From: a virus
Lineage: Duplodnaviria > Caudoviricetes
Virus record (IMG/VR): IMGVR_UViG_3300033146_003163
Span: 1-60,180 of that record
Direction: 5' to 3' (one strand)
Length of the DNA stretch: 60,180 bases
Positions 1,390 to 44,832 of this stretch are shown piece after piece. Numbering within the stretch: position 1 is the stretch's first letter; the number at the start of each line of letters is the position of its first letter. Made by a program: the position numbers and the translations under genes. The notes under the pieces are model-generated. The model made no database searches. It had not been told where the DNA came from and saw only the letters and a list, made by a program, of their open reading frames with translations.

Positions 1390-1450
1390 ATCGCCTAAGA
1401 GTACTTAAGAGTATTTAGGCAATGCAATATACTCAAAGAATGCTTAAGAG
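1390..1450 (-). repeat. Degenerate copy of the dispersed palindromic element
   Basis: Reverse complement CTCTTAAGCATTCTTTGAGTATATTGCATTGCCTAAATACTCTTAAGTACTCTTAGGCGAT aligns with the copies at 22085, 37374 and 44775. Confidence 0.65.
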
Positions 1451-1505
1451 GCTATGCTGGCTTCTTAAATAATTCGGATGGGTGTCTGATAGCCCCTGTC
1501 ATACT

Positions 1506-1763
1506 TTAAAATTTTGGGTGTTTGGTACGGAGTATAGCAATATCCCGTAGAGTAGTTAAATCCCCTTTCTTTTCTAGGATCTCTACGAGGTCTATGATAA
1601 GGTCTATGAGCTCCCTGTCAAGCTTAACGCCACAAGCCTTAAGAGTAGCATCCAAAAGGGGGATAGTGACTTTATCGATAGGCTTGAACCAGGGAGCCCG
1701 TAGAGGAGCCTCAGGCCAATATCCCGGTGTATATGGGGATTGGGGTCCGTTCGGGAAATCCAT
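1506..1763 (-). CDS. Hypothetical phage protein
   Basis: 85-aa ORF abutting 1764..2054. Confidence 0.6.
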   Translation of the reverse strand: MDFPNGPQSPYTPGYWPEAPLRAPWFKPIDKVTIPLLDATLKACGVKLDRELIDLIIDLVEILEKKGDLTTLRDIAILRTKHPKF

Positions 1764-2054
1764 CTAAGTAGCTGGATATTGATAAGAGCCCCCTGGAGCA
1801 ACGGCATCTGGACCAGGGTCTTCCTCAAAGGAAGGTTCGGCCTTTACTATGTTATTTGCAATTAAGAGCAATCGAGTATCATCATACCAGACTGATACTG
1901 CTTTCTTGTTCTTCTTCTTCGGTTTTGCTACTACGAGGTGTTGGTTGCACCCTGTTAGGTAATATACACTACCTGTTACTACGCCGGTGAACCCAGTTAC
2001 TATGTCCTTCACTTTGTCACCATTACTGAATTTGAATCTTCTTGTTGTTTCCAT
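1764..2054 (-). CDS. Hypothetical phage protein (SH3/KOW-like G-D-K-V-K-D-x-x-T-G-F-x-G motif)
   Basis: FKFSNGDKVKDIVTGFTGVVTG..YLTGCNQ..WYDDTRL pattern typical of small phage proteins. Confidence 0.75.
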   Translation of the reverse strand: METTRRFKFSNGDKVKDIVTGFTGVVTGSVYYLTGCNQHLVVAKPKKKNKKAVSVWYDDTRLLLIANNIVKAEPSFEEDPGPDAVAPGGSYQYPAT

Positions 2055-2060
2055 GTTTTG

Positions 2061-2261
2061 TTACGTATTTGGGGATTGTTTCGCCTCAATTTCCCAAGAT
2101 GGGTTTACTGTTGAAGAACCAGAATTAGGGCCCTCGGGTTTAGCCATGTCTTCCTGGATGAGCTTAGAGATATACTCTTCAATCTTGATTCTAGCTGCTC
2201 TACCTTGTCGGTGCAGATATTCAAGCTCTTCTTCTGAAATGTGAATCACGAAATGTATCAT
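2061..2261 (-). CDS. Small protein, possible ribbon-helix-helix DNA binder
   Basis: Alternating hydrophobic N-terminal strand followed by two helices (EEELEYL..EEYISKLIQEDM). Confidence 0.4.
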   Translation of the reverse strand: MIHFVIHISEEELEYLHRQGRAARIKIEEYISKLIQEDMAKPEGPNSGSSTVNPSWEIEAKQSPNT

Positions 2262-2272
2262 ATCGATATAAA

Positions 2273-2596
2273 TTATGGGTTTTCTGTTTTACTAAGTTTA
2301 TGGGTTTTAAGGAGGGTATCTAGCTGAGCCTCCCAAGAGGCAGCCTCTATTGTATCACCGGGGAAATACTTAAGGGTATCAGTGAAAACTGAAATGATAT
2401 CCTCTAGGGTCATTTGTAAGTCCACTTTAAAGCTCCACTCAGCCCTGAAGCCTATGACTACTACCCTAAAGCTTATAACTTTCCCGTCTTTTTCCTCTAG
2501 GGACTTCAGCTTATACCCACGGAATTGGGTTATGGGTATAAGTAAAGATAAGAATTGGCCTAGTACTCCAGGCATCTGTTTAGTAGCATTATTCAT
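2273..2596 (-). CDS. Hypothetical phage protein
   Basis: 107-aa ORF overlapping the upstream gene. Confidence 0.6.
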   Translation of the reverse strand: MNNATKQMPGVLGQFLSLLIPITQFRGYKLKSLEEKDGKVISFRVVVIGFRAEWSFKVDLQMTLEDIISVFTDTLKYFPGDTIEAASWEAQLDTLLKTHKLSKTENP

Positions 2597-2804
2597 CTTC
2601 TCCTCCTTCTTTTCCCAATGGGAGTAAAACGGCCAAGGCAGATACTGCTATCCCAAAGAGGAATCCAAAGATAATAGTAGCTGCTTGTTGCACTTTTCGT
2701 AAATCCAAGTATACTGCTACTACACCGAGTAGGGTAAACCCTGTGATGATCAGTGCAATGAATAATAAGCTTCGCCAAGCTTTGGCATTTGAAATCTTTT
2801 CCAT
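2589..2804 (-). CDS. Small two-helix membrane protein
   Basis: Two hydrophobic segments (LLFIALIITGFTLLGVVAVYL; TIIFGFLFGIAVSALAVLL); A-rich upstream region. Confidence 0.65.
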   Translation of the reverse strand: MEKISNAKAWRSLLFIALIITGFTLLGVVAVYLDLRKVQQAATIIFGFLFGIAVSALAVLLPLGKEGGEDE

Positions 2805-3120
2805 AATAATAAATTTTAATGGTTTATAAAAAAAGCATTGGGAGGGTACTTTTCTCTCTTAAGTGGATGATTTTTATGTTTTAAGTGCATCATTTGCAAG
2901 GTCTTACCCCCACAATTAGAAAACTCCTCTAATGGTGATAAACTTAAGCATAATCCCCCCGAGACTTTTTGAGGTGGGTTGCTTTTATAGTTGCACTCCG
3001 ATAAAGGGGGGCAGGGGGGGTTTTCTTACCACGGGAAACGTGTACTCCTCTCGCTTAAAGGAAAATAAATTAAAGGTAGTCTATAGCAGGTTACCTTTCT
3101 TAGTGTTAGGTATAGGTTAG

Positions 3121-3128
3121 CAAATATA
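3121..3128 (-). promoter_or_regulatory. Bacteroidota housekeeping-sigma -7 box (TAnnTTTG) facing the leftward genes
   Basis: CAAATATA on + reads TATATTTG on -, in the divergent intergenic region. Confidence 0.45.
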
Positions 3129-3216
3129 GGTTTAACTTTGTCTTATGTTCCCCAAAATTTTGCAAGCTCCCAGCACAGCGATAAGGAAAGTGCCAATTTG
3201 TCAGGGGGGATAAAAA

Positions 3217-3263
3217 CTTAAGCGGGAAAAGGCAAAAGCATAGCCCAGTGGCTTTTATTAATA
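3217..3263 (+). promoter_or_regulatory. Phage-specific promoter-like motif
   Basis: CTTAAG..CCCAGTGGCTTTTATTAATA upstream of the methyltransferase/packaging operon; recurs at 35058, 43302, 47949, 53096. Confidence 0.6.
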
Positions 3264-3275
3264 AATATTATTGTT

Positions 3276-4292
3276 ATGTATAGCGTAATCGGATTATCTT
3301 CCGGGGCAGGCATAGTCCTGCACCCCTTTTATCAAAGTCCTGATGTAGAAGTTAAGGCCGGTATAGAATGCCGAAGAGATTATCTATTAGGGGGTATGCC
3401 CGTCCAATTCGAGTTGAATTTCCCAGATGTGACCTATTCAACTAACCTGGAAATCAAACCCGAGTCTGTAGATGTGGTGATCGGCCACCCTAAGTGTGGG
3501 ATGTCTTCCGTCTTCGCCCTCTCTAGAGGGAAGAAGAACACTTCCCATAAAAATGAGCCCTCTCTTGACCTCTTCATAGCAGGGATTCACAAGCTCTTCC
3601 CAAAGTACTTCCTACTTGAGAATCTGCCCAAATTACTGGACACGTACTCGGAAAAGGAGTTCGAAGAGATTTTTGCTAACTACCGGCTGATCTTTTGGCA
3701 CGGGTCAGTAAGCGAGTTCGGAAATTCCCAAAAATCCCGTAAAAGGCTTATTATAATAGGGATTAGGGCTGATCTCTACACCAAGAGAGCTCATAAACTC
3801 CTTTCAAAGCCTAAGCCCGTATATGAACCTCAAACCACTGGCCACCTCTTAATGCACCTTCCTGAGAACGGTCATATCACAGAGGATATCGAGGATGAGA
3901 TAACTATCTATGGTGGAAAGAAGATGTATCTCTGGCAATTACAAAAGTATTGGAGAGACAACCCCGACTTAACCAGGTTTGCTGTAAATAAGGGTAATAT
4001 GAAGTATGCCCCTGGCGTATACATAAACCGAGCAGATAACTACCCTAAGACTGTTCGGAAAACCAACAGGCAATTTAACCCAGACGGTATACAGATGTCC
4101 CCAAGGGAAATGGCCAGAATCCAGGGCGTACCCGATACCTTCAAACTCTGTATGCCAAGTAAACACTGTGTATACGAGGAAAAAACCCTTATTAATAAAG
4201 GCCGGCTGTCAATTGCCAATACCCCTCCTTATGAAGTGGGGCTTTGGTTTAAGCTTTGTATGGATAAGCTATTCCGAACAAATAACAAGTAA
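3276..4292 (+). CDS. Divergent C5-cytosine DNA methyltransferase
   Basis: Motif I-like GLSSGAG, IV GHPKCG, VI LLENLP, VIII QKSRKRLII, IX SPREMARIQGVPDTF, X IANTPP. Confidence 0.8.
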   Translation: MYSVIGLSSGAGIVLHPFYQSPDVEVKAGIECRRDYLLGGMPVQFELNFPDVTYSTNLEIKPESVDVVIGHPKCGMSSVFALSRGKKNTSHKNEPSLDLFIAGIHKLFPKYFLLENLPKLLDTYSEKEFEEIFANYRLIFWHGSVSEFGNSQKSRKRLIIIGIRADLYTKRAHKLLSKPKPVYEPQTTGHLLMHLPENGHITEDIEDEITIYGGKKMYLWQLQKYWRDNPDLTRFAVNKGNMKYAPGVYINRADNYPKTVRKTNRQFNPDGIQMSPREMARIQGVPDTFKLCMPSKHCVYEEKTLINKGRLSIANTPPYEVGLWFKLCMDKLFRTNNK

Positions 4293-5821: not shown

Positions 5822-7312
5822 GTGAGTATATTTGATAAGAATTTTTTTACACTAAGGTCTACTCCCAAGGAGAATACTTCTAAAAAGGAGAAGATCCAGG
5901 AGATAAACCCTCAGAAAACCGTAGGTGTAGGCTTACCAACTTCTAGGGTTAGTGTTCCCGATCTAGAGTCCTCTTATAAGGGGCTTAAGAACTCTATGGA
6001 TTTCGTAACCCCCGATTTCCAATATGAGTACATTCCAATCATCCGTAAGTTATTTAAGGTTAACTCTTCTGTCTTTAGATCTACAGTTACCCTTACAGAA
6101 TTGATTAACTCGGGTTTTAGCTTAGAATTTGACTCTTCAGTTACAGATGAAGTACGTAGAGATATAAACCAACATCTCAAAAAAGTATATAAAACATGGG
6201 GATTAGGTACAGCCGGTATTCACGGTATAATCAATAAAATGGTTAGCCAGATATATGTTGGAGGAGCCTTATCCGTAGAATGGGTCCTTAACAGAGACCT
6301 AACAGGTATAGATTGCCCGGTTTTCGTAAACCCTGAAAATGTCCGAGTAAGATATAACACTTCTACGGGGAGGTATGATTTTTATCAAGTCCCCCACTAC
6401 TGGGAGCCTGGAAGAGATTATACTAAGGATAACGGTGCTATATTACTTAACCCCATTACATATCGTTACTATGGCCTCTTTACTGATGAGGAAAGCCCCA
6501 TAGGAACACCTCCTTTCCTTTCTGCATTGGATGATATCCAATCTCAATTAAAGATGCTCCGTAATATAGGGTTTGTCACTGACCAGCTTGGCCTCATGGG
6601 ATTCTTGGAGGTCATGTTGTCTAAACCCCTCCAAGCAGACGGAGAGAAAGACACCGCTTATATAGCTAGATTAGCTAAGTATTTAAATGACGCAAAAGCT
6701 GCGATAAAAGATGGGACTAAGGACGGAGTAGTTGCAGGTTTTAAAGATGAACATGAGTTCGATTTCCACGCTACTACCAAAGACACCTCTGGGGTAGCAG
6801 ACATCTTTAATATTAACCAAAGGATGGTTTCAAATGGTCTCTTATCTCCCTCTCAGTTCTTGGGAGGAGAGAAAGCGGGGGCTGAGACTGGTTTAGGCAT
6901 TATTTTCACTATGCTATTATCCCAGCTTAACAATATCCAACAATACATATCTGAGATTTTGGAAACTGGAATTTGGATGGAGTTAACCCTTGCTGGGTTT
7001 AAATTTGATTGGTTAGAAGTTAAATTTGATAAGTCAACAGTTACTGATACTTTGAAAGAAGCCCAATCTGAAGAGATAAAGATTAGGAATTCCAATTTAC
7101 TATATGCAGCTGGTATCATATCTCAAGCAACATACGCCAATAGACATGGTTTTGATGCCCCTGACCAAGAGGAACCTCGAGTAGAGATTGATCCTGTAAA
7201 AGCCCAAGCTGAACAAGTAGCTAAAGACAACAAACAGGACCAAGACAACAAGTCCAACCAAAAAACTCGAGAGAAAGAAAAAACACAGCCGAAACGTAAA
7301 GATCAAAAATAG
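5822..7312 (+). CDS. Portal protein
   Basis: 496 aa directly after TerL (GTG start); helical content and charged C-terminal tail. Confidence 0.8.
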   Translation: MSIFDKNFFTLRSTPKENTSKKEKIQEINPQKTVGVGLPTSRVSVPDLESSYKGLKNSMDFVTPDFQYEYIPIIRKLFKVNSSVFRSTVTLTELINSGFSLEFDSSVTDEVRRDINQHLKKVYKTWGLGTAGIHGIINKMVSQIYVGGALSVEWVLNRDLTGIDCPVFVNPENVRVRYNTSTGRYDFYQVPHYWEPGRDYTKDNGAILLNPITYRYYGLFTDEESPIGTPPFLSALDDIQSQLKMLRNIGFVTDQLGLMGFLEVMLSKPLQADGEKDTAYIARLAKYLNDAKAAIKDGTKDGVVAGFKDEHEFDFHATTKDTSGVADIFNINQRMVSNGLLSPSQFLGGEKAGAETGLGIIFTMLLSQLNNIQQYISEILETGIWMELTLAGFKFDWLEVKFDKSTVTDTLKEAQSEEIKIRNSNLLYAAGIISQATYANRHGFDAPDQEEPRVEIDPVKAQAEQVAKDNKQDQDNKSNQKTREKEKTQPKRKDQK

Positions 7313-8862: not shown

Positions 8863-8930
8863 CCTTCCCCGGATACTACAAGTACTCTTGCTTTAATTAT
8901 TGAAATATTATACATTAAAACTTAAATATT

Positions 8931-10563: not shown

Positions 10564-10586
10564 TCGTCCAGAATTGAAAATTAGTT

Positions 10587-10640
10587 AAAAAGGGGGTTGA
10601 AGAGGGCACGGTAGTCCACCTCGGGATACTCCCTTTTTTT
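10587..10640 (+). terminator. Intrinsic (possibly bidirectional) terminator after MCP
   Basis: AAAAAGGGGGT...ACTCCCTTTTTTT stem with an inner GAGG/CCTC stem. Confidence 0.7.
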
Positions 10641-10667
10641 AGTATTACACTTTAAAAACAAAAGAAA

Positions 10668-12800: not shown

Positions 12801-12801
12801 G

Positions 12802-16211: not shown

Positions 16212-16360
16212 AGGGGGTTTATTTTAACTTATGCTTGGCCAAGTTAAGCTTAACTTGGACTGAGTTTTTATCTTTTGGTATGTCTAGGATAGCAAGGTTC
16301 AAGGCTTTATCTGACTCATATTTTGATGCTCAGCATAAAGCCCTTTCTAAGCCTTCCTAG
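16187..16360 (+). CDS. -1 frameshift extension of the tail chaperone (G/GT-type)
   Basis: In-frame slippery heptamer T TTT TTC at 16187-16193; -1 frame open to TAG at 16358-16360, 15 nt before the tape measure. Confidence 0.75.
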   Translation, partial: FFLPNEDLEGVYFNLCLAKLSLTWTEFLSFGMSRIARFKALSDSYFDAQHKALSKPS

Positions 16361-22093: not shown

Positions 22094-22146
22094 GCATACT
22101 TAAACTATATATTGCAATTACTATGCACTTAAGTACTTTTAGGGAT
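22085..22146 (+). repeat. Dispersed palindromic element, copy A
   Basis: TACTCTTAAGCATACTTAAACTATATATTGCAATTACTATGCACTTAAGTACTTTTAGGGAT; 22083-22135 is identical to 37372-37424. Confidence 0.95.
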
Positions 22147-26160: not shown

Positions 26161-26164
26161 AACG

Positions 26165-35062: not shown

Positions 35063-35095
35063 GAGTATTTTAATAACTGAGATTCTTTTATAATA
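35058..35095 (+). promoter_or_regulatory. Phage-specific promoter-like motif (variant)
   Basis: CTTAAGAGTATTTTAATAACTGAGATTCTTTTATAATA. Confidence 0.45.
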
Positions 35096-35111
35096 AAGAC
35101 ACTTTTACAGA

Positions 35112-37373
35112 ATGGCAATTTACGTAGGAACTCAAGAAATCCTGGCTGGTAAGTTAAAGTTGGGAGGCAACGATATACAGGAGGTATATGTGGGGTCACA
35201 GAAAGTGTGGCCACCTGCTCCGCCTGATGTTCATTATGCTACTATTGTTAGTAATGGTAGTATGTATATATCAGTAGTTGATGTTGAGGGTGTATATGTC
35301 ATTGTTAATGATACAGTACGTACAGATGTACCTAATGGAAGTACTCAGCTAACTATCGCTGTTAACGGTACTGCAAAAGTTTATATTCCCGGAAATATAG
35401 TTCCTACCACTACTGATCAAATAGTAGCTTTTTATGAAACTAATAAAGCTCCGAGCATACAATCTCTCACTATTCATAATTTTGGTAATTTAATTTCATT
35501 GTATCAATTAGCAAGAGAATGTGGTAATTTATCTACTATTATAATTGAAGATAAAAGACCAACTATTCAATCTATAACAACAGCTTTTTATGAAACTAAT
35601 ATTTCTGATGTTATAGATATGAATTATGAAGGAGTACTTTATGCACAATCTACTTATGTAGGTACACCTCTTTCATCAAATATTAATCTTGAATTACCAA
35701 ATGCTATTAATCTAAGTTTTATGTTTGATATGTATAGTTCTTCAGCATCATTTGGAGATATTTCAATCATAGCTTTGAAAGCAACAAACTGGTGGAAAAC
35801 ATTTAATGGTATTCCTGCTACACATGCCCATGTTGAAATGGGAGCTGGTGTAGCAGACAGTACAAAAGAGATGTTTAGATATGCTGAAGATCTCGAATGT
35901 ATTACGGGAGTATTAGATACTACACAATGTAGTGATACAAGTTCAATGTTTGCAATGGCTAATAATCTTATAAGCCCTAATGCAGATGAACAAAATGCTA
36001 TTGAAGGTAGAGCGAGGTGGGAAAATGACGCTTGTGATGTACCCCTATATGAGACCATAGCTTTCAGGTTTACCTTAGCAAGTGGGAATAATTCAGATAC
36101 TACTTGTGTGGAGGTTATTGAGGTTAACAATGGTGTGATGATCTATAATGAAGATACTGGAGAACAGTTTTTAGTAAATGGGGATGGGTTATCCTTGGTA
36201 CCCATTGGGGTTTCTGGTAATTTTTCGGTTAGGCTTAAGTCGGGTTCTGATACGAGTGATCGTTCAAGGATAAGATTTCCTGTATTTACAGGACAAAACC
36301 CAGATGCTGAACCCTCAATAGGTAGCTTGGGGATAGAGGATCCAGGTTACTTAAATAAGTTAGATTATTTATTGTATGGGCAAAGGCTATTTACAACTGG
36401 GTTGTCTGGAGCCTTTAATATAAAAGAAGTCATAGATACCTATGCCCACGCTTTTGACGGTACTGCTATTTCTGAGATCCCTTTTAATATCTTTAAACCA
36501 GACCCCGTCCAACGATCAGAGTGCGAATTTATTTATGCTTTTGCTAATACTCCTAACTTACAAGACGTTGACCTTCCTGTCATACACGGGTGGAATCTGA
36601 CAGGTATGTTTTACAATTCGGGAGTTTCTACTGTACTCAATGTGATACCGGATTTGAGAATAGGGGACTATTCAGTTATGAGTGAAATATTTGCAAACTG
36701 TTCTAATCTTGACTCTGTAGAGAACATTGAAGCTGTAAGTGAGTTGGCAGATTCAATGTTTTATGGGTGTACTCAGTTAGTCTGCATAAACGGTCATTTC
36801 GATCTTCTTACTTATGGAAGTAATATGTTTACTAATTGTAACAACTTAGTACGACCCAGTGCTAGTGAAATTCTAGACATCGAAGCAGGGGAAGATGTAG
36901 TTATTAGCTCCTGTAGCCCTCCTACCCCCGAGCCCCTAATTCCTCAGATGACTGGGTATACAACTGGGAATGTTACTGTGAGTGCCTCCAATGAGTATCC
37001 CGATGCAGCTTTAGCAGCTTGGAAGGCTTTTGATAGGGACAATAATACAAGGTGGTCTACCGAGTTCAATGTTACGACAGCCCATTTACAGATCGAGTTT
37101 AGTGATGGGAATAAAGACATTTATACTATTACCGTTAGGGCTTCTGCTTCTGCTGATTGTGGTCCTACTATGATAACTCTACAAGAGTCCAGTGATGGTA
37201 ACACTTGGAGAAGCGTACAACAGTTTACGGGTATGACCTGGACACCCGGCCAATACAGGGAGTTAACTGTTACCCAGCCTACTAGCTACTCTAAGTTTCG
37301 ATTACAGATGCAGGCCCAAGTCTGCGGATCTGCGAACTTGGGACTAGCGGAAGTACAGTTCATAGGGTTTTAG
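35112..37373 (+). CDS. Putative receptor-binding/adhesin: DUF285/BspA-like repeats plus C-terminal F5/8-type C (discoidin) domain
   Basis: Recurrent MF..C..L / A-F..T repeats; VSASNEY..AWKAFDRDNNTRWST..LQIEF..LQESSDGNTW..LAEVQF. Confidence 0.7.
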   Translation: MAIYVGTQEILAGKLKLGGNDIQEVYVGSQKVWPPAPPDVHYATIVSNGSMYISVVDVEGVYVIVNDTVRTDVPNGSTQLTIAVNGTAKVYIPGNIVPTTTDQIVAFYETNKAPSIQSLTIHNFGNLISLYQLARECGNLSTIIIEDKRPTIQSITTAFYETNISDVIDMNYEGVLYAQSTYVGTPLSSNINLELPNAINLSFMFDMYSSSASFGDISIIALKATNWWKTFNGIPATHAHVEMGAGVADSTKEMFRYAEDLECITGVLDTTQCSDTSSMFAMANNLISPNADEQNAIEGRARWENDACDVPLYETIAFRFTLASGNNSDTTCVEVIEVNNGVMIYNEDTGEQFLVNGDGLSLVPIGVSGNFSVRLKSGSDTSDRSRIRFPVFTGQNPDAEPSIGSLGIEDPGYLNKLDYLLYGQRLFTTGLSGAFNIKEVIDTYAHAFDGTAISEIPFNIFKPDPVQRSECEFIYAFANTPNLQDVDLPVIHGWNLTGMFYNSGVSTVLNVIPDLRIGDYSVMSEIFANCSNLDSVENIEAVSELADSMFYGCTQLVCINGHFDLLTYGSNMFTNCNNLVRPSASEILDIEAGEDVVISSCSPPTPEPLIPQMTGYTTGNVTVSASNEYPDAALAAWKAFDRDNNTRWSTEFNVTTAHLQIEFSDGNKDIYTITVRASASADCGPTMITLQESSDGNTWRSVQQFTGMTWTPGQYRELTVTQPTSYSKFRLQMQAQVCGSANLGLAEVQFIGF

Positions 37374-37435
37374 TACTCTTAAGCATACTTAAACTATATA
37401 TTGCAATTACTATGCACTTAAGTATGCTTAGGGAT
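37374..37435 (+). repeat. Dispersed palindromic element, copy B
   Basis: Perfect 13-bp inverted arms TAAGCATACTTAA (37380-37392) / TTAAGTATGCTTA (37418-37430). Confidence 0.95.
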
Positions 37436-37507
37436 GACCTATACTATCTCAAATTACACTCTGGCATATAATATTCATTAAAATTAAAACCTTAAAATCT
37501 TACGCAA

Positions 37508-39034
37508 ATGAAAAGATTAATTTTCTTTAGCCTTGCAGTGCTTATGACACTCGGCTTTTTAACTCAGTCTTGTAAAAAAGACTTGCCTACTATGGGTACA
37601 GAAAAAGGACAGCTCCAGCTCTCCCTTAACCAGACCGATTTTCAAACTGGTCTGAAAGATGTAGGCTTTGACTCTGTACCGGAGTGTAGTGACCTTGGTT
37701 GGTCCTATGCAAAATTTGTTATCAATGGAGACACCATCAAAACTGGGCTTATTACAATGGCCGACGGTACCGTTAATACGGAACCTTTACAATTAGATGT
37801 AGGGGTATATACCGTAACACGTTTTTGGGTATTTAACGACAATGGTACTCCCAATGACGAAAGTGATGACATCCTTATCCGAGCAGCCCCCCTACCTGGT
37901 AGTACGTACTACCCTCTTGTGGCTAATGCCCTCGACATCAGTGTGGAGATACAAGCTTTTAAAAAGGTTAATTACGTTATCGACGTACTATGCTATGAGG
38001 AGCTGTTCTATGAAGAGTTTGGATTCGTATGGTTTACCCTAAATGACGTGGTGGTACATCAGATCTGCGTTTTTGGGGATGTCTGTACAACCGATCCCGA
38101 TTTATATGCCGGGAGCCTTTATGAGGGGCAGCAAAACGGTCTACAGATGGATATGCCGGCAATCTTCGAGGCTCTAATTTACAAGAATGAGGTACTCCAA
38201 TCAACATTTAGCAATGAGGCGTGGCTCGGTGAAGGCGAATGCTTGCCGGTGTACTGGGCAGATGATGTTGACCTCGATGAGGACTTCTATCTGGTTATTA
38301 AAACATTGCTACCGGTAGGAACAGGCTTTGGATATGTTACCACAGATAGTATTGCGATTGATCCGGATGATGGAAGCGGGCTTATGCTTGATGATGGTGT
38401 TCTCGTCTTCGAAGTAGGTGATTGTAATGGGGGGCCCAACGTTTATGGGTGTACAGCTTGGATTAATCTACCCACCACTACTTTCACTTTCACCTTATCA
38501 GGAAATAGCTACATGGTTATCGATGCAGGTACAGGAGATACTACCTGGTACCCGGCATCCCTTGGCACATACTTTAGCTATGACTTCAGCGGAGTACCCA
38601 GTGGCTATGCGGTCCACGATGGGACTTGGGCTGGTTGGTGCGGAGATAAGAATACTGGAATCTCTGGAGGTAATAGTTACACTGCGAAATTTGTAAGTTC
38701 AGTTCAGCCACTTCCCACTGGTTTTTATTTAAGCCAGACACAAGTTAATGAGTTAAACTGGATCTTCAACCATTTGCAGGACTTCTTCCCTGGCTTAGAT
38801 CAAGATGATTGGGTAAGTTGGCAAACTTCACATCCGGGAGAGTTTTACGAACTTCAAACAGCGATCTGGATGATTACGAATGGTATCAGTTCAGGGAGCC
38901 ATACTTTAGCACAATCTATTTACGATGTAGCTATCGCGAATCCCTTGTATAGTCCTCCGATGGATGGTACAGGTATTGTATTTGTTTATATGGGTAATGA
39001 TATACAGCTTCAATTTATACAGCTGCACTGTTAA
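37508..39034 (+). CDS. Bacteroidota-type lipoprotein with C-terminal thioester-domain-like region
   Basis: Signal peptide II ending TQS-C22-KKD; GWC378GD, VNELNWIFN, LQ450TAIW, terminal IQLQF. Confidence 0.7.
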   Translation: MKRLIFFSLAVLMTLGFLTQSCKKDLPTMGTEKGQLQLSLNQTDFQTGLKDVGFDSVPECSDLGWSYAKFVINGDTIKTGLITMADGTVNTEPLQLDVGVYTVTRFWVFNDNGTPNDESDDILIRAAPLPGSTYYPLVANALDISVEIQAFKKVNYVIDVLCYEELFYEEFGFVWFTLNDVVVHQICVFGDVCTTDPDLYAGSLYEGQQNGLQMDMPAIFEALIYKNEVLQSTFSNEAWLGEGECLPVYWADDVDLDEDFYLVIKTLLPVGTGFGYVTTDSIAIDPDDGSGLMLDDGVLVFEVGDCNGGPNVYGCTAWINLPTTTFTFTLSGNSYMVIDAGTGDTTWYPASLGTYFSYDFSGVPSGYAVHDGTWAGWCGDKNTGISGGNSYTAKFVSSVQPLPTGFYLSQTQVNELNWIFNHLQDFFPGLDQDDWVSWQTSHPGEFYELQTAIWMITNGISSGSHTLAQSIYDVAIANPLYSPPMDGTGIVFVYMGNDIQLQFIQLHC

Positions 39035-39049
39035 ACCCTTTTGGTTATC

Positions 39050-39074
39050 GGGGATAGGGGTTAAGCCTATCCCC
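39050..39074 (+). terminator. GC-rich hairpin after the lipoprotein gene
   Basis: GGGGATAGG-GGTTAAG-CCTATCCCC; no clear U-tract. Confidence 0.55.
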
Positions 39075-39115
39075 TGTAATCACAAGTAAGTTTTGACTAT
39101 TAATTAAAATTAGGT

Positions 39116-40159
39116 ATGGGACGTTTATTTGGAAAACTTGGATTTAACTTAGGGTTTGCTGGTAGTTTAGAAGCTCCTGAAACCCCTTTAGAGGGGTACC
39201 CATTAGAGCAGCATCCCGACTGGAGAGTCCTACAAGGTATTTACGATACAAAACTAGGCTGGAGAAAAAGAGGAGAAACGATATTTGTTAGAAACCAGCC
39301 TGTCTCTGGGGTAAAAAATCTAGCTTTTAAATCCTTTTATCTGGAGGACGGTTACATATTGGGTACATACCTATATCAACCAATGTCTGGGGAGACTTGG
39401 ACAATCCCCTTTGCTAAGATGGTAAATGGAAACAACATCATTGGAGCTAGGATATTGGCTAACAAGGTTGAGATAGTACAAAGGAGAAACGGAACATGGG
39501 CGACTAGAGCTTCTACACCTGTCCCAGCAGGCTCATCTCATTGGGTTGTACATATCACTAATGACCATGTCTATGTAGAGATAGATGGAGTACCTGTACT
39601 GGACAGTTCTCACGCTGTACCCGGTCCAGGTTATTTCGGTATTAGTATGCACAAATTTGAGATTGGAGCAGAAACTGATTTCTTAGAGAATTACAAGGTA
39701 TTTGCAGAAGAGCCCATCACATATCGAGGAGAGCTGATAACATATAACCAAAAAATCATAAAAGACATGGCTGAATTATTTAACATATTAGCATATGAAA
39801 AATCTCTCGTAGCTAGCGTAGAGGTTACAGCAGTAGACCCTGACTGGTTACCCATTAACCAGCTTGTAACACAGGAGAAAGAACCGGGGGATTACGAAGT
39901 ACTATTCTCTATGGGTTGGAGTTATGATGTTACCAATAAATCGGGTAAGATCAGGTTTTCACTTGACGGAGGATCTAGCTGGGAGGAGAGATCAGAAGAA
40001 CCGAAAGATAAGACCGACAAAAGGACATCGAGTATTATCCTTCCATTGACCCTTACTACAGCCCAAACCCTGGACATCCAGCTGGAGGCTAACAAGGAGG
40101 GGACGGACCATATCATGACAATTCACCATTCGCTGATCTCCATTCAGCGAGTGAAATAA
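39116..40159 (+). CDS. Hypothetical beta-rich protein, possibly two fused genes
   Basis: Lectin-like N-half; in-frame ATG at 39767 with an A-rich leader starts a second domain. Confidence 0.6.
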   Translation: MGRLFGKLGFNLGFAGSLEAPETPLEGYPLEQHPDWRVLQGIYDTKLGWRKRGETIFVRNQPVSGVKNLAFKSFYLEDGYILGTYLYQPMSGETWTIPFAKMVNGNNIIGARILANKVEIVQRRNGTWATRASTPVPAGSSHWVVHITNDHVYVEIDGVPVLDSSHAVPGPGYFGISMHKFEIGAETDFLENYKVFAEEPITYRGELITYNQKIIKDMAELFNILAYEKSLVASVEVTAVDPDWLPINQLVTQEKEPGDYEVLFSMGWSYDVTNKSGKIRFSLDGGSSWEERSEEPKDKTDKRTSSIILPLTLTTAQTLDIQLEANKEGTDHIMTIHHSLISIQRVK

Positions 40160-40180
40160 ATAATCAAAAACAAAGAAAAC

Positions 40181-40621
40181 ATGGAACAAAGATTGCAAGA
40201 TGTATTAGTACCTAAGGATTCAGTATCCTTTGAGGTACCTTTGAACACAACTTGGAGAAGAGAGTACGGCTCTCTTAACCTTGTATTTGGCATTGAATAT
40301 GAGAATCGTAAAGTAGGTTTACTATTCAAAGCACAACCTCAACCCGATGGTTCTATCACAGGAGAATTCTGGGCAGGTACCATTCCCACTACTGCAGAGG
40401 GAACCTGGGATCTTAAGAAGCTGTCTGACTTAGAGAACTGGAATGGAGTACACACCTTTGAGATTGGTCACGATGATGACGAGGTTTTCGTTATAGAGAA
40501 AAAACACCCAATTTCAATAAGCCACCGTTTCGAAGCCCATGATGTTGGAGAGCCCTTAAGCTTTTTAACACCCGCTTTCAGGTGGAGACCTCGTTGGGAC
40601 GTTAAAGTTAAACTTGTTTAA
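40181..40621 (+). CDS. Hypothetical protein
   Basis: 146-aa ORF, A-rich start. Confidence 0.7.
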   Translation: MEQRLQDVLVPKDSVSFEVPLNTTWRREYGSLNLVFGIEYENRKVGLLFKAQPQPDGSITGEFWAGTIPTTAEGTWDLKKLSDLENWNGVHTFEIGHDDDEVFVIEKKHPISISHRFEAHDVGEPLSFLTPAFRWRPRWDVKVKLV

Positions 40622-40632
40622 AACCCATAACT

Positions 40633-40908
40633 ATGGAATTAGTAGCACAACAGGGCTTAGATAATGCCCAACTTTTGTATCCTGGTAAGTCTTTGATAGC
40701 TCTTACAGATGGAGCAGCCCATGATCCCCAATTAACCCGTCCCACTGTGGCTCGGATTTTTACAACCCAAGCTGGAGTAAAGCTTTCTATTGACCCCGTA
40801 CCGGAAGTCACTAAAGCTTTCACCTTAAACGTGGGAGAGAATATCTGGGGAGTCCCTGGTGGAGCCCAGATCTGCGTATTTGGAGGTGACGCTGAACTGA
40901 TGTACTAG
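40633..40908 (+). CDS. Hypothetical protein
   Basis: 91-aa ORF in operon. Confidence 0.65.
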   Translation: MELVAQQGLDNAQLLYPGKSLIALTDGAAHDPQLTRPTVARIFTTQAGVKLSIDPVPEVTKAFTLNVGENIWGVPGGAQICVFGGDAELMY

Positions 40909-41169
40909 ATGAAAAGGATCTTAGCAGTATTTCTGATAGTAGGGAGTCTCTTAGTAGCCTCCCTACTTATTCAGTGTAACACTCTTCATAATCCTAAGCG
41001 GGAAGTTAAGGAAAGGACTATCTCTGTAGATACTGTCTTTGGTCCTAATGGCCAGATCCTTTACATAAAGAAACATCACTCAAATGAGTTTAAGGAGGAG
41101 GTGTATCTATACTCTATAGTAGGTTTAATGGTAGTCCTTATCGCATTAGTTTTGTACGGAAAAAAATAA
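40909..41169 (+). CDS. Small lipoprotein with C-terminal TM helix (possible unimolecular spanin)
   Basis: MKR-hydrophobic-LIQ-C23; C-terminal VYLYSIVGLMVVLIALVLY-GKK. Confidence 0.45.
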   Translation: MKRILAVFLIVGSLLVASLLIQCNTLHNPKREVKERTISVDTVFGPNGQILYIKKHHSNEFKEEVYLYSIVGLMVVLIALVLYGKK

Positions 41170-41175
41170 TAAAAG

Positions 41176-42615
41176 ATGAATAAAAATCACATTGAATATT
41201 TAGACCCTATAGATTCCTTCCCACAGCAGGAAGCTAGAATACCTCTTGCTAAGCCCGGTAGGTATTTGGGATTTGACACTTGGGTAGCAGATGGCCAAGG
41301 TACAGGGGACATCCCCATTCGAGTAGGCCATTCCAAAAAAGGGGTTTTGGGGATTGTCCCTGCCCAGCCCTTTTCAGATGAAGCCAACACTCTTCAGTAC
41401 ACGGGAACTCTAGTGACTTGTCAAGGTGTAGTACATAACCGCATCATAGATAATATCCTAATAGAGGGGATTCCACTATCCTTTGACAGTAACACTGGAA
41501 CTCAGGATAAGTACTGGTTATTTTATGGAAGGTACTCTTGGGTTCCCACTGCTGGCGGGTCACAGGTAGAGTTCGGGATCTATGAATTTTCTCCGACTAA
41601 CCTAGAGGAGATAGACCTATGGGAATTTATTACTTCTCCCAATATAGAGTTCCCCATAGGATACTTTGTTATTAAACCTAACACAACTGACATCACGGGG
41701 TTAGCTTATTACCCAGCCTTAACCCCTAAATTCGCTTGGTCAGAGGAAGCTTACTTTGATCCCAACTTATATGCTAAGCTGTGGGAATACAATGAGTTCC
41801 ACATGACCAACTACCTACAGCTCCAAGAACTAAACGATGATAATGTTGACACCAGTGCTTGGGAGCTAAGCTTTGATGGGGATAAGGGCAATGTTATCGA
41901 TGTCACTTTAACTAAGCCCCTAACCGCTTTGGTCACTATAAACAGTGGGAATAGAAGAACACAGGGAGTATACTTTTTTAAGTTTTCTAGCTTGGCCCAT
42001 GAGCCTTTAAGGTTGTTTGAAACAGGCAATATCAAAATACCCCCTGGTGCAGAAGAGATGTATTACGGGGCAAGAGTTATGAATGTTTATCATGGCCAAA
42101 CCCTGATAATGCTTAAATCCACGAACATGGTAGGCCAAGAGGTTTGGACAATTTGGAATAAATTTCCAGAGTCTCGTATACGGGGAACCTGGAAAACTCT
42201 AGACCCTAAAGTATTAGAGAACCCATCGTATATCCAGTTTGATTACCTGGAGTATCTTAAAGACCCATTCACTGGACATGTTAAAATCCGGGCTCAGATA
42301 AGGCAAACTAGGCCTAGTGGAATAGTTTCTGGTACTTATAACAATGTGGCTAATGTACCTCTTCCGATTGATTACTCCCCATCGACTTGTCCAACAGACC
42401 CCTCCACTTGTAGGATGGCTGTACAACATGCCATTTGTACTACTGCCTACAAACAATCCATAGCGGGTATACCAGATCCCCCCGGTTTTGAAACTACTAT
42501 GGCTATTGTTTCTGCTGTTCTGGTTATTACCCCCGATAATACTATCGACCTAATTGTACAGGACTTAGAGCCTGGTACTTACCTGTTTTCTGAATTCCAT
42601 CTTTCTAATGGATAA
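41176..42615 (+). CDS. Putative tail/baseplate-attached fibre protein
   Basis: 479 aa, beta-rich; PGRYLGFD N-terminal motif; last gene of the structural block. Confidence 0.5.
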   Translation: MNKNHIEYLDPIDSFPQQEARIPLAKPGRYLGFDTWVADGQGTGDIPIRVGHSKKGVLGIVPAQPFSDEANTLQYTGTLVTCQGVVHNRIIDNILIEGIPLSFDSNTGTQDKYWLFYGRYSWVPTAGGSQVEFGIYEFSPTNLEEIDLWEFITSPNIEFPIGYFVIKPNTTDITGLAYYPALTPKFAWSEEAYFDPNLYAKLWEYNEFHMTNYLQLQELNDDNVDTSAWELSFDGDKGNVIDVTLTKPLTALVTINSGNRRTQGVYFFKFSSLAHEPLRLFETGNIKIPPGAEEMYYGARVMNVYHGQTLIMLKSTNMVGQEVWTIWNKFPESRIRGTWKTLDPKVLENPSYIQFDYLEYLKDPFTGHVKIRAQIRQTRPSGIVSGTYNNVANVPLPIDYSPSTCPTDPSTCRMAVQHAICTTAYKQSIAGIPDPPGFETTMAIVSAVLVITPDNTIDLIVQDLEPGTYLFSEFHLSNG

Positions 42616-42641
42616 GATCCCGTTCCTGTGTTTCTTTTGCT

Positions 42642-42666
42642 GGGCCCCGTTTGGGGCCCTTTTTTT
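42642..42666 (+). terminator. Intrinsic terminator ending the structural operon
   Basis: GGGCCCC-GTTT-GGGGCCC followed by TTTTTTT. Confidence 0.9.
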
Positions 42667-42686
42667 GTTTACAAAAATTAATTCCC

Positions 42687-42719
42687 TTGTAAACCGTATA
42701 ATCTTTTTTATTATATTTG
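42687..42719 (+). promoter_or_regulatory. Bacteroidota housekeeping promoter (-33 TTG / -7 TAnnTTTG)
   Basis: TTG at 42687-42689 and TATATTTG at 42712-42719, 23 nt upstream of ATG 42743. Confidence 0.7.
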
Positions 42720-42742
42720 CATTACATATTAAAAAAGGGTTT

Positions 42743-43306
42743 ATGAAAGCACAGGACAAAATGTTAAGGCTATTTTCCGAGACGGAAGGCCTTAAAAAGA
42801 AGTTAGCTTCTAGTTTTAATTACAGTCGATATGGTTTTTCTTACGATGACATTATCGGCTTTCTTGATGACAAAATCATCCACGTATTTATGAGGTATCC
42901 CGATAAGGATTACGAGGAATTATTGGGGTTGTGTATTACTTCTATGAGAAGGGTTATCCCTCGGTTAGCCAGGAAGTATGGCAGGGAAGTATTAGTAGAT
43001 AGTATAGTTTTCGAAAGAGCGGTTACCGAAGAAGCTCCTCAGATATCTACTTTAATCTCTAACGTGATCCCCCTGCTAGAAACACATAGTAGGGCCTTGA
43101 TAGAGGTAATCCTAGACCCACCCGCTTACATCCTTGCACGGGTAACTAACCCGGACCACAGAATCCCCTCTCACTTGTTTCTCGAGTATTTAGATTTCCC
43201 TATAAACAAACAAACCGTTAAGATGTTTAATAAATTTAGACGGGACCTGTTTAGTTTTATACGAGAAAAAATAGACCCTGAAACACTTGAATTAAAATAT
43301 ACTTAA
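42743..43306 (+). CDS. Putative sigma-factor-like transcription protein
   Basis: Helical 187-aa protein; LKKKLASSFN..YDDIIGFLDDKIIHVF recalls sigma region 2 and the C-terminus recalls an HTH; the track start at 42608 runs through a terminator and is rejected. Confidence 0.45.
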   Translation: MKAQDKMLRLFSETEGLKKKLASSFNYSRYGFSYDDIIGFLDDKIIHVFMRYPDKDYEELLGLCITSMRRVIPRLARKYGREVLVDSIVFERAVTEEAPQISTLISNVIPLLETHSRALIEVILDPPAYILARVTNPDHRIPSHLFLEYLDFPINKQTVKMFNKFRRDLFSFIREKIDPETLELKYT

Positions 43307-43344
43307 GTTCGATAGAATTTTAATCCCCATTGGCTTTTATAATA
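43302..43344 (+). promoter_or_regulatory. Phage-specific promoter-like motif
   Basis: CTTAAG..AATTTTAATCCCCATTGGCTTTTATAATA directly before the DnaB ATG. Confidence 0.65.
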
Positions 43345-43345
43345 T

Positions 43346-44770
43346 ATGGAAGAAAATAAATTTTCCTTTGACCTGACATTTCAGGCAGAGGTACTTCGAT
43401 TTATACTAAACAATAGCGATGGTTATAAAGCCCTTGATTTTATAAACCATCGCTATTTCTCCTTGTTAGAGCATAGCATCATAGCTCATGCGCTAGAGGC
43501 TTTGTGGAAGAATACTTCTAATATTCCTTCTAAGCCTTTGTTAAGGAATGCTATCCAGGCATCTTTCAGAGACCGGATGTTTGCCGATGCTTTAACATCA
43601 AATGATCGAGCTGATATCTTGACTCTTGTAGAAGACCTGTACTCTAGGCCTGCGAAGGATGGGAAAGAGATTTTAGTAGAGATAGTAAGATTCGCTTCCT
43701 ATGTGGACCTTAAAAACACTCTTGAAAACTTTCAGCTAGAGGACTACAGTTCTTACAAAAGTTTTAGCGAAAGGGTAATCCAAGCCATCCATAAAGAGGA
43801 CCAGTTAAAGGAGAAGCGAGGAGCTTTCTTAATAAAAGATATCAAAGAAAGACAGCTATCAAGGCAAGCACAAGATTTGATCATACCATCACCTTTCTAC
43901 CAATTGAATAGGTTAACAAGCGCAGGGGGTTTTTCCCCTGCTTCTGTGTTAGTTATCTTGGATAAACCTAAGAGGTTAAAGACTACTCTGATGGTTAACA
44001 TAACCAGAAGGTATTTAGCTAGGAAGAAGAAGGTACTATACATTGACCTTGAGAATGGGGAACTAGAGATAGTGACTAGAGAAGAACAGAGTATCGGAAG
44101 AGTTACTAAGAAGGAGATTATAGCTGGGACTAAGGATAAGGAAATACAAAAGGTCTTAAGGAGGTATAGGAGGATAGGGGGAGAGATGTACGTAAGAAGG
44201 CTACCTGGTTTCTCTACTGCCTTAGATATCCAGAGAGTGATTAACGAAATATACCGGGAAGAGGGGTTACTATTTGACGTTCTCATCATTGATTACCTAG
44301 CCCTTATGGGAAGTATATCTGGAAAGACTGATGACTTTGGACGTATCTCAGATGCTTATGTAGATGTGGCTAACTTGGCTTTCGAGAATAGCTTCGAGGT
44401 TGTATGGACAGCTAACCACGTAGTAAGGGGTGCTTCTAAACGGGAAAGGACTAGGTATATTGGGGACGATATTGCAAAGTGTATCGATATCGTAAGACAC
44501 GCTCAGGGGATCTTTGGCCTTAACCGGTCCATCGAAGAAGAGGAGAATGGGATAGTTAGGCTAGAGATTGTAGAGGGCCGAGAAACTCTTCCAAGAGGGA
44601 GGGGATACTTTAGGGTCGATGCTCCAACCCAACGAGTAGATGAGTTAACTAAGAAAGAGGTTGCACAGCTAACTGCTGAAGGGATTCTTTATAACCCAGA
44701 CAACGCCTACCAGGAAGAAGGAGAAGAGGACTCTCCCAAGAAGAAGGGGAAGCCAACTGGAGACATTTAA
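43346..44770 (+). CDS. Replicative DnaB-like (SF4) helicase
   Basis: LNRLTSAGGF, altered Walker A DKPKRLKTT, VLYIDLE, LIIDYLALM, VWTANH. Confidence 0.85.
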   Translation: MEENKFSFDLTFQAEVLRFILNNSDGYKALDFINHRYFSLLEHSIIAHALEALWKNTSNIPSKPLLRNAIQASFRDRMFADALTSNDRADILTLVEDLYSRPAKDGKEILVEIVRFASYVDLKNTLENFQLEDYSSYKSFSERVIQAIHKEDQLKEKRGAFLIKDIKERQLSRQAQDLIIPSPFYQLNRLTSAGGFSPASVLVILDKPKRLKTTLMVNITRRYLARKKKVLYIDLENGELEIVTREEQSIGRVTKKEIIAGTKDKEIQKVLRRYRRIGGEMYVRRLPGFSTALDIQRVINEIYREEGLLFDVLIIDYLALMGSISGKTDDFGRISDAYVDVANLAFENSFEVVWTANHVVRGASKRERTRYIGDDIAKCIDIVRHAQGIFGLNRSIEEEENGIVRLEIVEGRETLPRGRGYFRVDAPTQRVDELTKKEVAQLTAEGILYNPDNAYQEEGEEDSPKKKGKPTGDI

Positions 44771-44774
44771 TATG

Positions 44775-44832
44775 CTTAAGCATACTTAAACTATATATTG
44801 CAATTACTATGCACTTAAGTATGCTTAGGGAT
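44775..44832 (+). repeat. Dispersed palindromic element, copy C
   Basis: 44775-44832 is identical to 37378-37435 (58 bp). Confidence 0.95.

Follow-up and report, generated by a model that had tools for sequence, protein, structure and literature searches.

The element reported here is a short intergenic cassette in which two palindromic CTTAAG hexamers flank a promoter-type box. It occurs in four copies in the uncultivated virus IMGVR_UViG_3300033146_003163 (Duplodnaviria; Caudoviricetes), three on the + strand, designated A, B and C, and a degenerate one on the minus strand. The whole IMG/VR virus record, 60,180 bases long, is the stretch of DNA that was analysed and is called the window below; it is classed as linear, its completeness is estimated at 71%, and about 29% of the genome, for which a total of ~85 kb is expected, is missing from it. 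The closest described systems are the PeSLs of T4-type phages, the operators and stoperators of Cluster A mycobacteriophages, the promoters of Bacteroidota and the middle promoters of T4.

In the available excerpts of the two PeSL reports (PMC2839356, PMC4122927), PeSLs are short intergenic repeats that form a stem-loop and carry a promoter, are near-identical within a genome, vary in position between relatives and occur in phages with an active recombination system, and the window element is alike in these respects. It differs in its build. The PeSL promoter matches the sigma-70 consensus in full and follows an AT-rich region, whereas here a Bacteroidota -7-type box lies inside the 'loop'. 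The PeSL stem-loop is GC-rich (often GGGG...CCCC) and was shown to terminate, whereas the stem here is AT-rich and is not conserved in relatives. PeSLs cluster around ORFans in hyperplastic regions, whereas the copies here stand at the borders of core modules, and recombination between copies, demonstrated for PeSLs, is putative here, suggested by sequence identity and position. Of the features that define a PeSL, a sigma-70 early promoter and a terminator were absent from copies B and C, which a scan of 34500-48500 covered, and a strong stem-loop is confined to these two copies.

In Cluster A mycobacteriophages, according to the excerpts available of PMC9283540, one short motif likewise lies at promoters and in the short intergenic spaces at gene borders, and its stoperators are thought to block both initiation and elongation; the same logic is proposed here. 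The mycobacteriophage sites are asymmetric 13-mers, bound by a monomer and set in one orientation, whereas the site here is the palindrome CTTAAG, extended at most to TACTTAAGTA. Cluster A phages are temperate and the binder is their immunity repressor, whereas no lysogeny genes were found in the 60 kb of the window. Promoters of the Bacteroidota primary sigma factor consist of a -33 TTTG and a -7 TAnnTTTG, with leaders typically of ~23 nt in Bacteroides (PMC7366714, in the part available). A relative of the window, G007, carries TTT[TG]-N20-TATATTGC at three start-proximal sites, with predicted leaders of ~20-30 nt, and the 'loop' of the window copies has the identical TATATTGCAAT. The box is one T short of the consensus, and the window copies have no -33 TTTG; CTTAAG lies roughly there instead.

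T4 middle promoters, in which a MotA box at -30 replaces the -35 element, are alike in combining a host-type downstream box with a phage-specific motif near -30 and no upstream box. They differ in that a second site lies downstream of the box here, which suggests repression rather than activation, and in that no MotA or AsiA homologue was seen. The element lacks defining features of a PeSL, an intrinsic terminator, an Rfam family and a miniature inverted-repeat transposable element (MITE), and shares at most part of those of a canonical Bacteroidota promoter.

Architecture and conservation of the two-hexamer cassette

Exact matches to the left arm TAAGCATACTTAA lie on the + strand at 22091, 37380 and 44777, and exact matches to its reverse complement at 37418-37430 and 44815-44827, with 25 nt between the arms. 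In copy A the right arm has diverged at 3 of 13 positions (TTAAGTACTTTTA vs TTAAGTATGCTTA). At up to two mismatches the arm gave 13 matches vs 3.10 expected (0/100 shuffles reached 13), and a repeat search grouped 22083-22175, 37372-37464 and 44769-44861 as one family of three dispersed copies. By blastn-short, copies B and C are identical at 58 of 58 positions (37378-37435 / 44775-44832), copies A and B at 53 of 53 (22083-22135 / 37372-37424), and copies A and C are 93.9% identical over 66 nt; the alignment of the copies shows loose A-C similarity for ~40 nt further downstream (GGGATAA.ATAAA..TCGC..GATACTGCC). The minus-strand copy (1390-1450) matches A, B and C at 61-63% of positions and retains both CTTAAG hexamers at 39-nt spacing, the TATATTGC box and CTTAGG. 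The arrangement CTTAAG-N33-CTTAAG occurs four times in the window vs 0.03 expected, a count reached in none of 100 shuffles. The repeat is real and non-random. A sequence-only reading of the window had reported the three arms, the diverged right arm of the first copy, 53-58 bp of identity between pairs, the degenerate minus-strand copy and the further A-C similarity, and all of these were recovered.

All four copies are intergenic and oriented as the flanking or downstream genes, and the + strand copies start at or just after a stop codon, as had also been reported. The upstream TAA stop (22091-22093) falls inside the left CTTAAG of copy A, and the arms of copies B and C begin 7 nt after TAG (37371-37373) and TAA (44768-44770), respectively. 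Copy A stands before the wedge genes, between the gpV-like spike gene (PF04717) and the gp25-like gene, and copy B lies in a 134-nt gap with the last tail/adhesin gene on its 5' side and a putative lipoprotein gene on its 3' side, both in agreement with the earlier placement. Copy C lies between the genes for a DnaB-like helicase and the primase. The longest primase open reading frame (ORF) starts at 44841 and all relatives align only from residue 22 (MNKNL...), which makes 44904 the likeliest true start; with that start, a 133-nt gap holds copy C and a second TATATTGC box. The minus-strand copy occupies a 152-nt gap between the minus-strand ORFs 1506-1763 and 901-1353.

Close relatives of the window proved rare, three being found: G001 (28.8 kb), G007 (45.25 kb) and the 1.4-kb fragment L087. 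The genomes G004, G005 and G008 are distant relatives. G001 shares gene order with the window between the prohead-protease gene and the baseplate, and also at the helicase (helicase 59%, gp6-like protein 48% identical), and G007 is syntenic with window positions 3276-24962 (gp6-like protein 45% identical). L087, the sole close fragment from a metagenome search with a 3-sequence primase alignment, encodes a primase 77% identical to that of the window and is cut inside the cassette; the region downstream of copy C and the box site at 44877 upstream of the primase are kept in it. Mis-assembly is unlikely for copy A because G001 and G007 show the same gene order with an orthologous element; for copy C, the downstream region kept in L087 bears on the same question.

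The search for the element in relatives that the sequence-only reading had called for yielded four further copies, two each in G001 and G007. The CTTAAG pairs of G001, at 39-nt spacing, lie upstream of the gp25-like gene and of the helicase gene; those of G007, at 40-nt spacing, lie upstream of the gp25-like gene and inside a leftward small-gene block. The window, G001 and G007 share an orthologous copy before the gp25-like gene, where the flanking proteins are only 31-48% identical. Across the eight copies from three phages, no core column is invariant outside the two CTTAAG hexamers, which lie 39-40 nt apart. The cores of A, B and C are 95-100% identical, those of the two G001 copies 71% and those of different phages 42-63%. 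For six copies an alignment of ~100 columns needs no indel; it runs from the left CTTAAG as far as a CTGG block ~44 nt past the right CTTAAG. In the G007 copy before the gp25-like gene, the 10-bp palindrome TACTTAAGTA appears twice. The architecture of the element is conserved across three phages.

Window arm sequences are also present in G007 (L113) outside its two-hexamer cassettes. At ~5830-5900, in a 334-nt non-coding stretch, AAGCATACTTAAG equals the window left-arm sequence, and ~30 nt from it, on the other strand, ATGCTTAGGGAT equals the end of the window right arm.

Searches of wider scope gave no further copies. The pattern CTTAAG-N21-25-ATTAC-N5-7-CTTAAGTA had no other match in the whole of IMG/VR (the window's own record left out), the window-type arms had no match in IMG/VR, and the gp6-like protein alone as query found no relative there. 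Megablast of 36000-46000 against GenBank phages gave no match. Among 81 loci (L004-L084, 973,973 bases), 80 of which are distant helicase-primase loci with ~40% primase identity, there was no core copy at up to 8 mismatches and no 14-bp arm consensus at up to 1 mismatch. A 39-nt CTTAAG pair was present in 0 of 86 fetched loci outside the window and G001, and G008 (38% gp6-like identity) has no CTTAAG pair.

Folded as RNA, copies B and C form a 16-bp stem (-19.3 kcal/mol, z -3.6, and -21.4 kcal/mol, z -5.5, respectively). Copy A folds weakly (-8.4 kcal/mol, z -0.33), the minus-strand copy takes a differing fold (-19.2 kcal/mol, z -3.24), and the G001 copies upstream of the gp25-like and helicase genes give -11.0 kcal/mol (z -1.27) and -10.6 kcal/mol (z +0.57). 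The consensus structure of the eight-copy alignment consists of six trivial CTTAAG:CTTAAG pairs (-1.69 kcal/mol), none with a compensatory change. The pairing register also varies: in the window the left CTTAAG pairs with a CTTAGG ten bases past the right CTTAAG, and the pairing in G001 and G007 joins one hexamer to the other, by way of TA flanks. Conservation does not extend to the long hairpin. Palindromic sites held at a fixed distance, with no fold in common, point to a symmetric protein that recognises them in double-stranded DNA.

Several known element types were ruled out. The arms are AT-rich and followed by GGGAT, unlike the GC-rich stem and T-run of an intrinsic terminator, and a terminator scan of 34500-48500, which covers B and C, found nothing at either copy, with no T-run after the stem. 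Clustered regularly interspaced short palindromic repeats (CRISPR) were excluded, the repeat family consisting of three dispersed copies, and no tRNA or tmRNA was found; the same exclusions had been made in the sequence-only reading and hold. For a MITE or a Correia-like element, no direct duplication flanks the arms (CT...GG in A, B and C). A MITE is also disfavoured by the similarity that continues past the right arm (GGGAT and beyond) and by the presence of one orthologous copy in three diverged phages.

A promoter-type box and CTTAAG sites at gene borders

Two features were absent from the sequence-only reading, the promoter-type box in the 'loop' and at least six further intergenic CTTAAG sites. 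Enrichment was assessed in 54 non-coding gaps of at least 35 nt upstream of ORFs in the window, G001 and G007 (7,374 nt). The top enriched 8-mer was TATATTGC (7 gaps vs 0.27 expected), and ACTTAAG was present in 12 of the 54 gaps vs 1.03 expected. TATATTGC (TAnnTTGC) occurs in all four window copies, placed centrally with 13 nt between it and the left hexamer and 12 nt between it and the right one, and the segment between the hexamers contains the 11-base TATATTGCAAT. In G007, TATATTGCAAT precedes three start codons by 35, 40 and 42 nt, and in every case TTTT or TTTG stands exactly 20 nt upstream of it; these three sites match the -33/-7 layout, and their implied leaders are near the typical 23 nt. 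The window holds five TATATTGC occurrences, namely the four copy loops and the site at 44877, 19 nt before the primase start at 44904. Should transcription start a few bases past the box, the hexamer centres would lie at ~-28 and +11, the usual places for repressor sites, and the geometry would favour repression. The canonical TAnnTTTG occurs at 35 + strand and 21 - strand sites in the window, none of them in the copies or in other large gaps, and none of the three occurrences of TTTG-N19-21-TAnnTTTG in the window is in a gap. We are fairly confident that a promoter forms part of the element, but have no such confidence in its exact geometry.

Two sigma-70 readings were rejected. Sigma-70-type sites are not enriched, which disfavours TTGCAA-N16-TATGCT in the loop: a scan of 34500-48500 gave 24 sites vs 35.2 expected, none at copies B or C. 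The downstream GATACT/TATACT block was likewise considered as an extended -10, and in L087 it is altered to GATATG; the related GATACTNCC at up to 1 mismatch gave 68 matches vs 54.4 expected, a number reached by 4 of 100 shuffles and at best marginal. The block is retained solely as a conserved block with no assigned role. In the head module, the gaps 8863-8930 and 10564-10667 contain GGATACT(A/C)C followed by a T-rich, TA-rich run, like the block 3' of copies A and C.

An operator network would show one short motif enriched at gene borders, and CTTAAG has this distribution in the window. There, 16 of its 33 sites touch non-coding DNA, which makes up 6% of the sequence, and it ranks top of the 64 palindromic hexamers; the next, TTATAA, touches non-coding DNA at 9 of 39 sites. 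The counts are 4 of 9 in G001 (10.8% non-coding) and 8 of 18 in G007 (9.7%), and close to background in the distant relatives G004 (4 of 35; 10.8%) and G005 (6 of 34; 10.2%). CTTAAG as an intergenic motif across the genome is confined to this lineage, represented by the window, G001 and G007, and is not shared by G004 and G005. Besides the pairs, the window has six single 'class 1' sites (Table 1), all just before genes, in which CTTAAG lies 21-29 nt upstream of [CT]TTTT[AT]T[AT]A[AT], in the form GCTTTT... at five; G001 has one before its helicase gene. A TAA stop lies inside CTTAAG at five gene ends (22093, 35062, 43306, 47953 and 53100).

The divergent region 2805-3275 holds two TTTGCAAG boxes (near 2910 and 3168) and two outward-facing class 1 sites. 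It looks like a main control region, and the same layout is found in G007 at 12558-12875. Directly after it lies the gene for a C5 cytosine DNA methyltransferase (3276-4292; PF00145, E 5e-18), which is conserved in G004, G005 and G007. The restriction enzymes AflII and BfrI recognise CTTAAG. A link between the methyltransferase and CTTAAG is disfavoured, the methyltransferase being present also in G004 and G005, which show no CTTAAG enrichment.

Proposed function, copy history and competing explanations

We propose that the element is a promoter-like box set between two palindromic operators for a putative dimeric regulator and that it gates transcription at operon borders, a proposal in which our confidence is evenly divided. 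An operator for a dimeric protein was among the functions offered by the sequence-only reading and is the option that fits best, given two invariant palindromic CTTAAG hexamers at 39-40 nt in eight copies from three phages. The cassette would control transcription in cis, working as double-stranded DNA. A dimeric DNA-binding protein, probably encoded by the phage, would occupy both CTTAAG-core operators, 39-40 bp apart, and its occupancy would gate initiation at the TATATTGCAAT box and block polymerases reading through from the upstream operon. Such blocking would explain why the copies stand at operon borders, which are predicted before the wedge/fibre, lipoprotein and primase blocks and inside the minus-strand small-gene block. 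The single CTTAAG sites at six other gene borders may belong to the same regulon. From the geometry we infer that repression or gating is favoured over activation; the alternative is activation by a protein that replaces the missing -33 contact.

Several observations weigh against this proposal. No ORF scanned with Pfam and PHROGs was named as a DNA-binding protein, many small ORFs being unnamed; small ORFs of this kind lie at 341-2804, 2932-3120, 40181-41169, 48001-48381, 50559-50906, 53155-53388 and 54032-54460. The 39-bp spacing amounts to ~3.7 helical turns, so that two dimers would not share one face of the helix. Taken alone, the number of boxes in the window falls short of significance (5 vs 2.09 expected, with 5 reached in 6 of 100 shuffles), and three of these boxes duplicate each other. 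Where a -33 TTTG would be expected, 19-21 nt upstream of the box, the window copies instead read GTAC, ATAT or ATAG. In the relatives the box is less regular: the loop of the G001 copy upstream of the gp25-like gene has only the poor TAATTCTA, the corresponding G007 loop has TAGTTGC shifted ~10 nt to the left, and the G007 copy at 12322-12367 has its right CTTAAG immediately next to the ATG, so that a leader could not fit between them. The promoter geometry proposed above is tentative, because the box could be read in another register, with the loop TTG as -33 and TAnnYTTR after the right hexamer as -7, and this register suits the G001 copy upstream of the helicase gene well (TTTG-N19-TAGCTTGC). 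Finally, the host is a deduction, the nearest cultured phages (Microcystis and Flavobacterium phages) having TerL proteins only ~35% identical to that of the window.

The identity of A, B and C lies above what function needs, which indicates recent duplication or gene conversion. Their flanks are mosaic: copy B shares six extra upstream bases, AGTACT, with A, and copy C shares the downstream leader of A. In copy A, AGTACT encodes the last residues of the gpV-like protein, which suggests copying from A to B. The best explanation is that copy A is ancestral and orthologous, and that duplication or gene conversion recently gave rise to B and C. Over longer periods the cassette also moves. G001 has the full two-hexamer cassette between the end of its homologue of the gene at 42608 and the single-CTTAAG site before the helicase gene; the window has only the single site (43302) before the helicase gene, and the cassette lies 3' of that gene instead.

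A comparable habit is seen in G004, a complete 85.5-kb relative with terminal repeats that is syntenic with the window along its length. It carries (L095-L099) seven dispersed repeats of 45-67 bp, 92-100% identical, which are canonical TTTG-N20-TAATTTTG promoters upstream of genes (Table 1), and G005 has two TATATTTGCAT cassettes. The seven cassettes of G004 indicate that repeated promoter cassettes are a habit of this phage group, of which the window element would be the lineage's own, differently built version. At least the G004 cassette at 83309 is preceded by a terminator-like hairpin and is PeSL-like.

Recombination and RNA structure are the competing accounts with most in their favour. 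A PeSL-like mobile regulatory cassette, in which recombination between copies moves, deletes or swaps the bracketed blocks, including the wedge/fibre/adhesin block between A and B, is compatible with the proposed gate, and we consider it rather unlikely. The near-identity of A, B and C against 42-63% among orthologues, which implies recent duplication or gene conversion, speaks for it, as do the mosaic flanks, the position of the cassette upstream of the helicase gene in G001 and downstream in the window, and the UvsX-, SbcCD- and exonuclease-like recombination proteins that the phage encodes; PeSLs, as presented in the available portions of PMC2839356 and PMC4122927, are themselves recombining composites of stem-loop and promoter. 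Against it, recombination of A with B in one genome would delete essential baseplate genes, and changes of gene content relative to G001 and G007 do not coincide with the copies. Homologues of the window genes up to 24962 were found by tblastn in both G001 and G007, whereas none were found for 24970-41169 in G001 or for anything beyond 24962 in G007. Synteny thus ends 2.8 kb rightward of copy A (22091), and the unshared block encloses copy B rather than ending at it. The sequence-only reading had suggested a recombination site for swapping host-range cassettes, with gene-content breakpoints at the element; of this, recent duplication or homogenisation and a shifting cassette position find support, and coincident breakpoints do not. 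The breakpoint comparison is not a fair test, because G001 and G007 are too distant and a missing tblastn match may mean divergence only. Recombination between near-identical copies is plausibly a side effect of the element or even a second function, as with PeSLs.

The same reading had also suggested a mobile hairpin or RNA-processing element. The long hairpin might act as an RNase III-type site, a 3' stabiliser or a factor-dependent terminator or antiterminator signal, which we regard as improbable. Conserved intergenic hairpins serve as RNase III sites in T7, and the 16-bp stems of B and C, directly after stop codons, would suit such a role. The strong hairpin is confined to these two copies, however, and the weak fold of A, the other fold of the minus-strand copy, the G001 z-scores, the lack of covariation or of any structure beyond CTTAAG:CTTAAG, the shifting register and the absence of a T-run, of a terminator-scan match at B or C and of any Rfam match at gathering score all argue against it. 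Other kinds of DNA site, namely a replication origin or iterons, a nicking or packaging site, a CTTAAG methylation switch or a mini invertible promoter, seem very unlikely. One copy adjoins the helicase and primase genes, but the copies are scattered across 43 kb, and the copy with conserved orthologues lies among the baseplate genes, outside the replication module; nothing supports the replication origin named in the sequence-only reading, and nicking-site, methylation and mini-inverton roles likewise have nothing positive in their favour. The phage has a C5 DNA methyltransferase, but so do G004 and G005, without CTTAAG enrichment. The inverted repeats around a promoter box recall the invertible promoters of Bacteroides, but the box is in gene orientation in all copies, and a 25-nt segment is very short for recombinase-mediated inversion.

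Beyond the proposed operator-flanked gate, we tentatively suggest, as a wider picture that is more likely wrong than right, that this lytic, uncultivated myovirus lineage directs its gene expression through a genome-wide CTTAAG-operator network under one putative phage protein, with gates that copy themselves by recombination. The gates, at module borders, would each hold a host-type promoter box between two operators, and single sites, often overlapping a stop codon, would lie at other gene ends; the host would probably belong to Bacteroidota. If true, the network would be a stoperator-like system outside temperate actinobacteriophages, and gates copied to new intergenic sites would rewire operons under CTTAAG control. 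If near-identical copies recombine, the bracketing of the receptor-binding gene block would offer one possible route of cassette exchange. The main interest of the element is the access it offers to gene regulation in a phage lineage that has not been studied: the timing of gene expression is nearly unstudied in the abundant uncultivated myoviruses related to the ~85-kb gut phages, and the words 'promoter' and 'intergenic' are absent from the available portion of the 'Flandersviridae' paper (PMC8008677). Two CTTAAG hexamers 39-40 bp apart around TATATTGCAAT, together with six single CTTAAG sites, form a compact and testable motif set that predicts operon borders. Through them, phages with Bacteroidota-type promoters would join the T4-type phages with their PeSLs and the Cluster A mycobacteriophages with their stoperators as carriers of repeated regulatory cassettes.

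Gene content, host and minor features

The genes of the window were named from PHROGs and Pfam (Table 1), and the named set (sheath, tube, spike, wedge and others) identifies a contractile-tailed phage. All genes from 3276 to 59904 run rightward, and eight small ORFs at 341-2804 run leftward. A motif like the Shine-Dalgarno (SD) sequence lies in the 20 nt before the start in 6 of 57 window genes, and these regions are A-rich; Bacteroidetes mRNAs are described as lacking SD sequences in the part available of PMC7366714. The N-terminus of the putative lipoprotein (37508-39034) ends in ...SCKKD. The scarcity of SD motifs, the promoter boxes and the lipoprotein signal suggest that the host belongs to Bacteroidota. 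By TerL, the nearest GenBank phages are uncultured gut phages (54% identity).

Table 1. Positions of the element copies, single CTTAAG sites and named genes (window coordinates, except for the G004 cassettes).
Feature	Position	Strand	Details
Copy A core	22089-22146	+	CTTAAG 22089-22094 and 22128-22133; TATATTGC box 22108-22115
Copy A 3' part		+	diverged right arm, then GGGAT; conserved leader up to gp25-like start 22263
Copy B core	37378-37435	+	CTTAAG 37378 and 37417; box 37397-37404
Copy C core	44775-44832	+	CTTAAG 44775 and 44814; box 44794-44801
Leader downstream of copy C	44833-44903	+	second TATATTGC box 44877-44884
Degenerate copy	1390-1450	-	left CTTAAG 1443-1448, box 1424-1431, right CTTAAG 1404-1409 (gene strand)
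Class 1 site	2826-2863	-	faces minus-strand small-gene block; divergent control region
Class 1 site	3217-3261	+	upstream of C5 DNA methyltransferase gene (3276-4292)
Class 1 site	35058-35094	+	between collagen-like fibre gene and 753-aa tail protein gene
Class 1 site	43302-43343	+	CTTAAG with stop of 42608-43306, 26 nt, GCTTTTATAAT; just upstream of helicase
Class 1 site	47949-47989	+	upstream of 48001-48381
Class 1 site	53096-53133	+	3' of DNA polymerase gene, upstream of 53155-53388
Head module genes			large terminase, portal, prohead protease, major head protein (PHROGs/Pfam)
Tail genes	tape-measure gene 16376		sheath, tube, tape measure (PHROGs/Pfam)
gpV-like spike gene	21365-22093	+	PF04717
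gp25-like and gp6-like wedge proteins	22263-24310	+	gp25-like start 22263
Collagen-repeat fibre gene	26165-35062	+	8.9 kb
BspA leucine-rich repeat (LRR) / F5/8-C tail protein	35112-37373	+	753 aa; last tail/adhesin gene
Putative lipoprotein gene	37508-39034	+	product start MKRLIFFSLAVLMTLGFLTQSC / MKRLIFFSLAVLMTLGFLTQSCKKD
DnaB-like helicase	43346-44770	+	
Other replication/recombination genes			primase, second helicase, PolA, SSB, UvsX-like, exonuclease, SbcCD-like
G004 promoter cassettes	5176, 8477, 9226, 10822, 83309		TAATTTTG then CATTG
G004 promoter cassettes	20512, 60135	-	TAATTTTG then CATTG

Three minor features of the window were also recorded. The ORF at 26165-35062, for which a homologue was detected in neither G001 nor G007, is a single reading frame of 2,965 aa with many collagen-like Gly-X-Y runs between repeated globular modules, and it supplies nearly all large repeat families of the window. 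A GC-rich hairpin, GGGGATAGG-N7-CCTATCCCC, lies at 39050-39074, just 3' of the putative lipoprotein gene, and resembles a terminator stem, yet has no T-run after it. The 164-nt gap before the tape-measure gene (16376), which contains no CTTAAG, holds a perfect 20-bp palindrome, CCAAGTTAAGCTTAACTTGG, at 16239-16258; it is unique in the window and was present in 0 of 100 shuffles.

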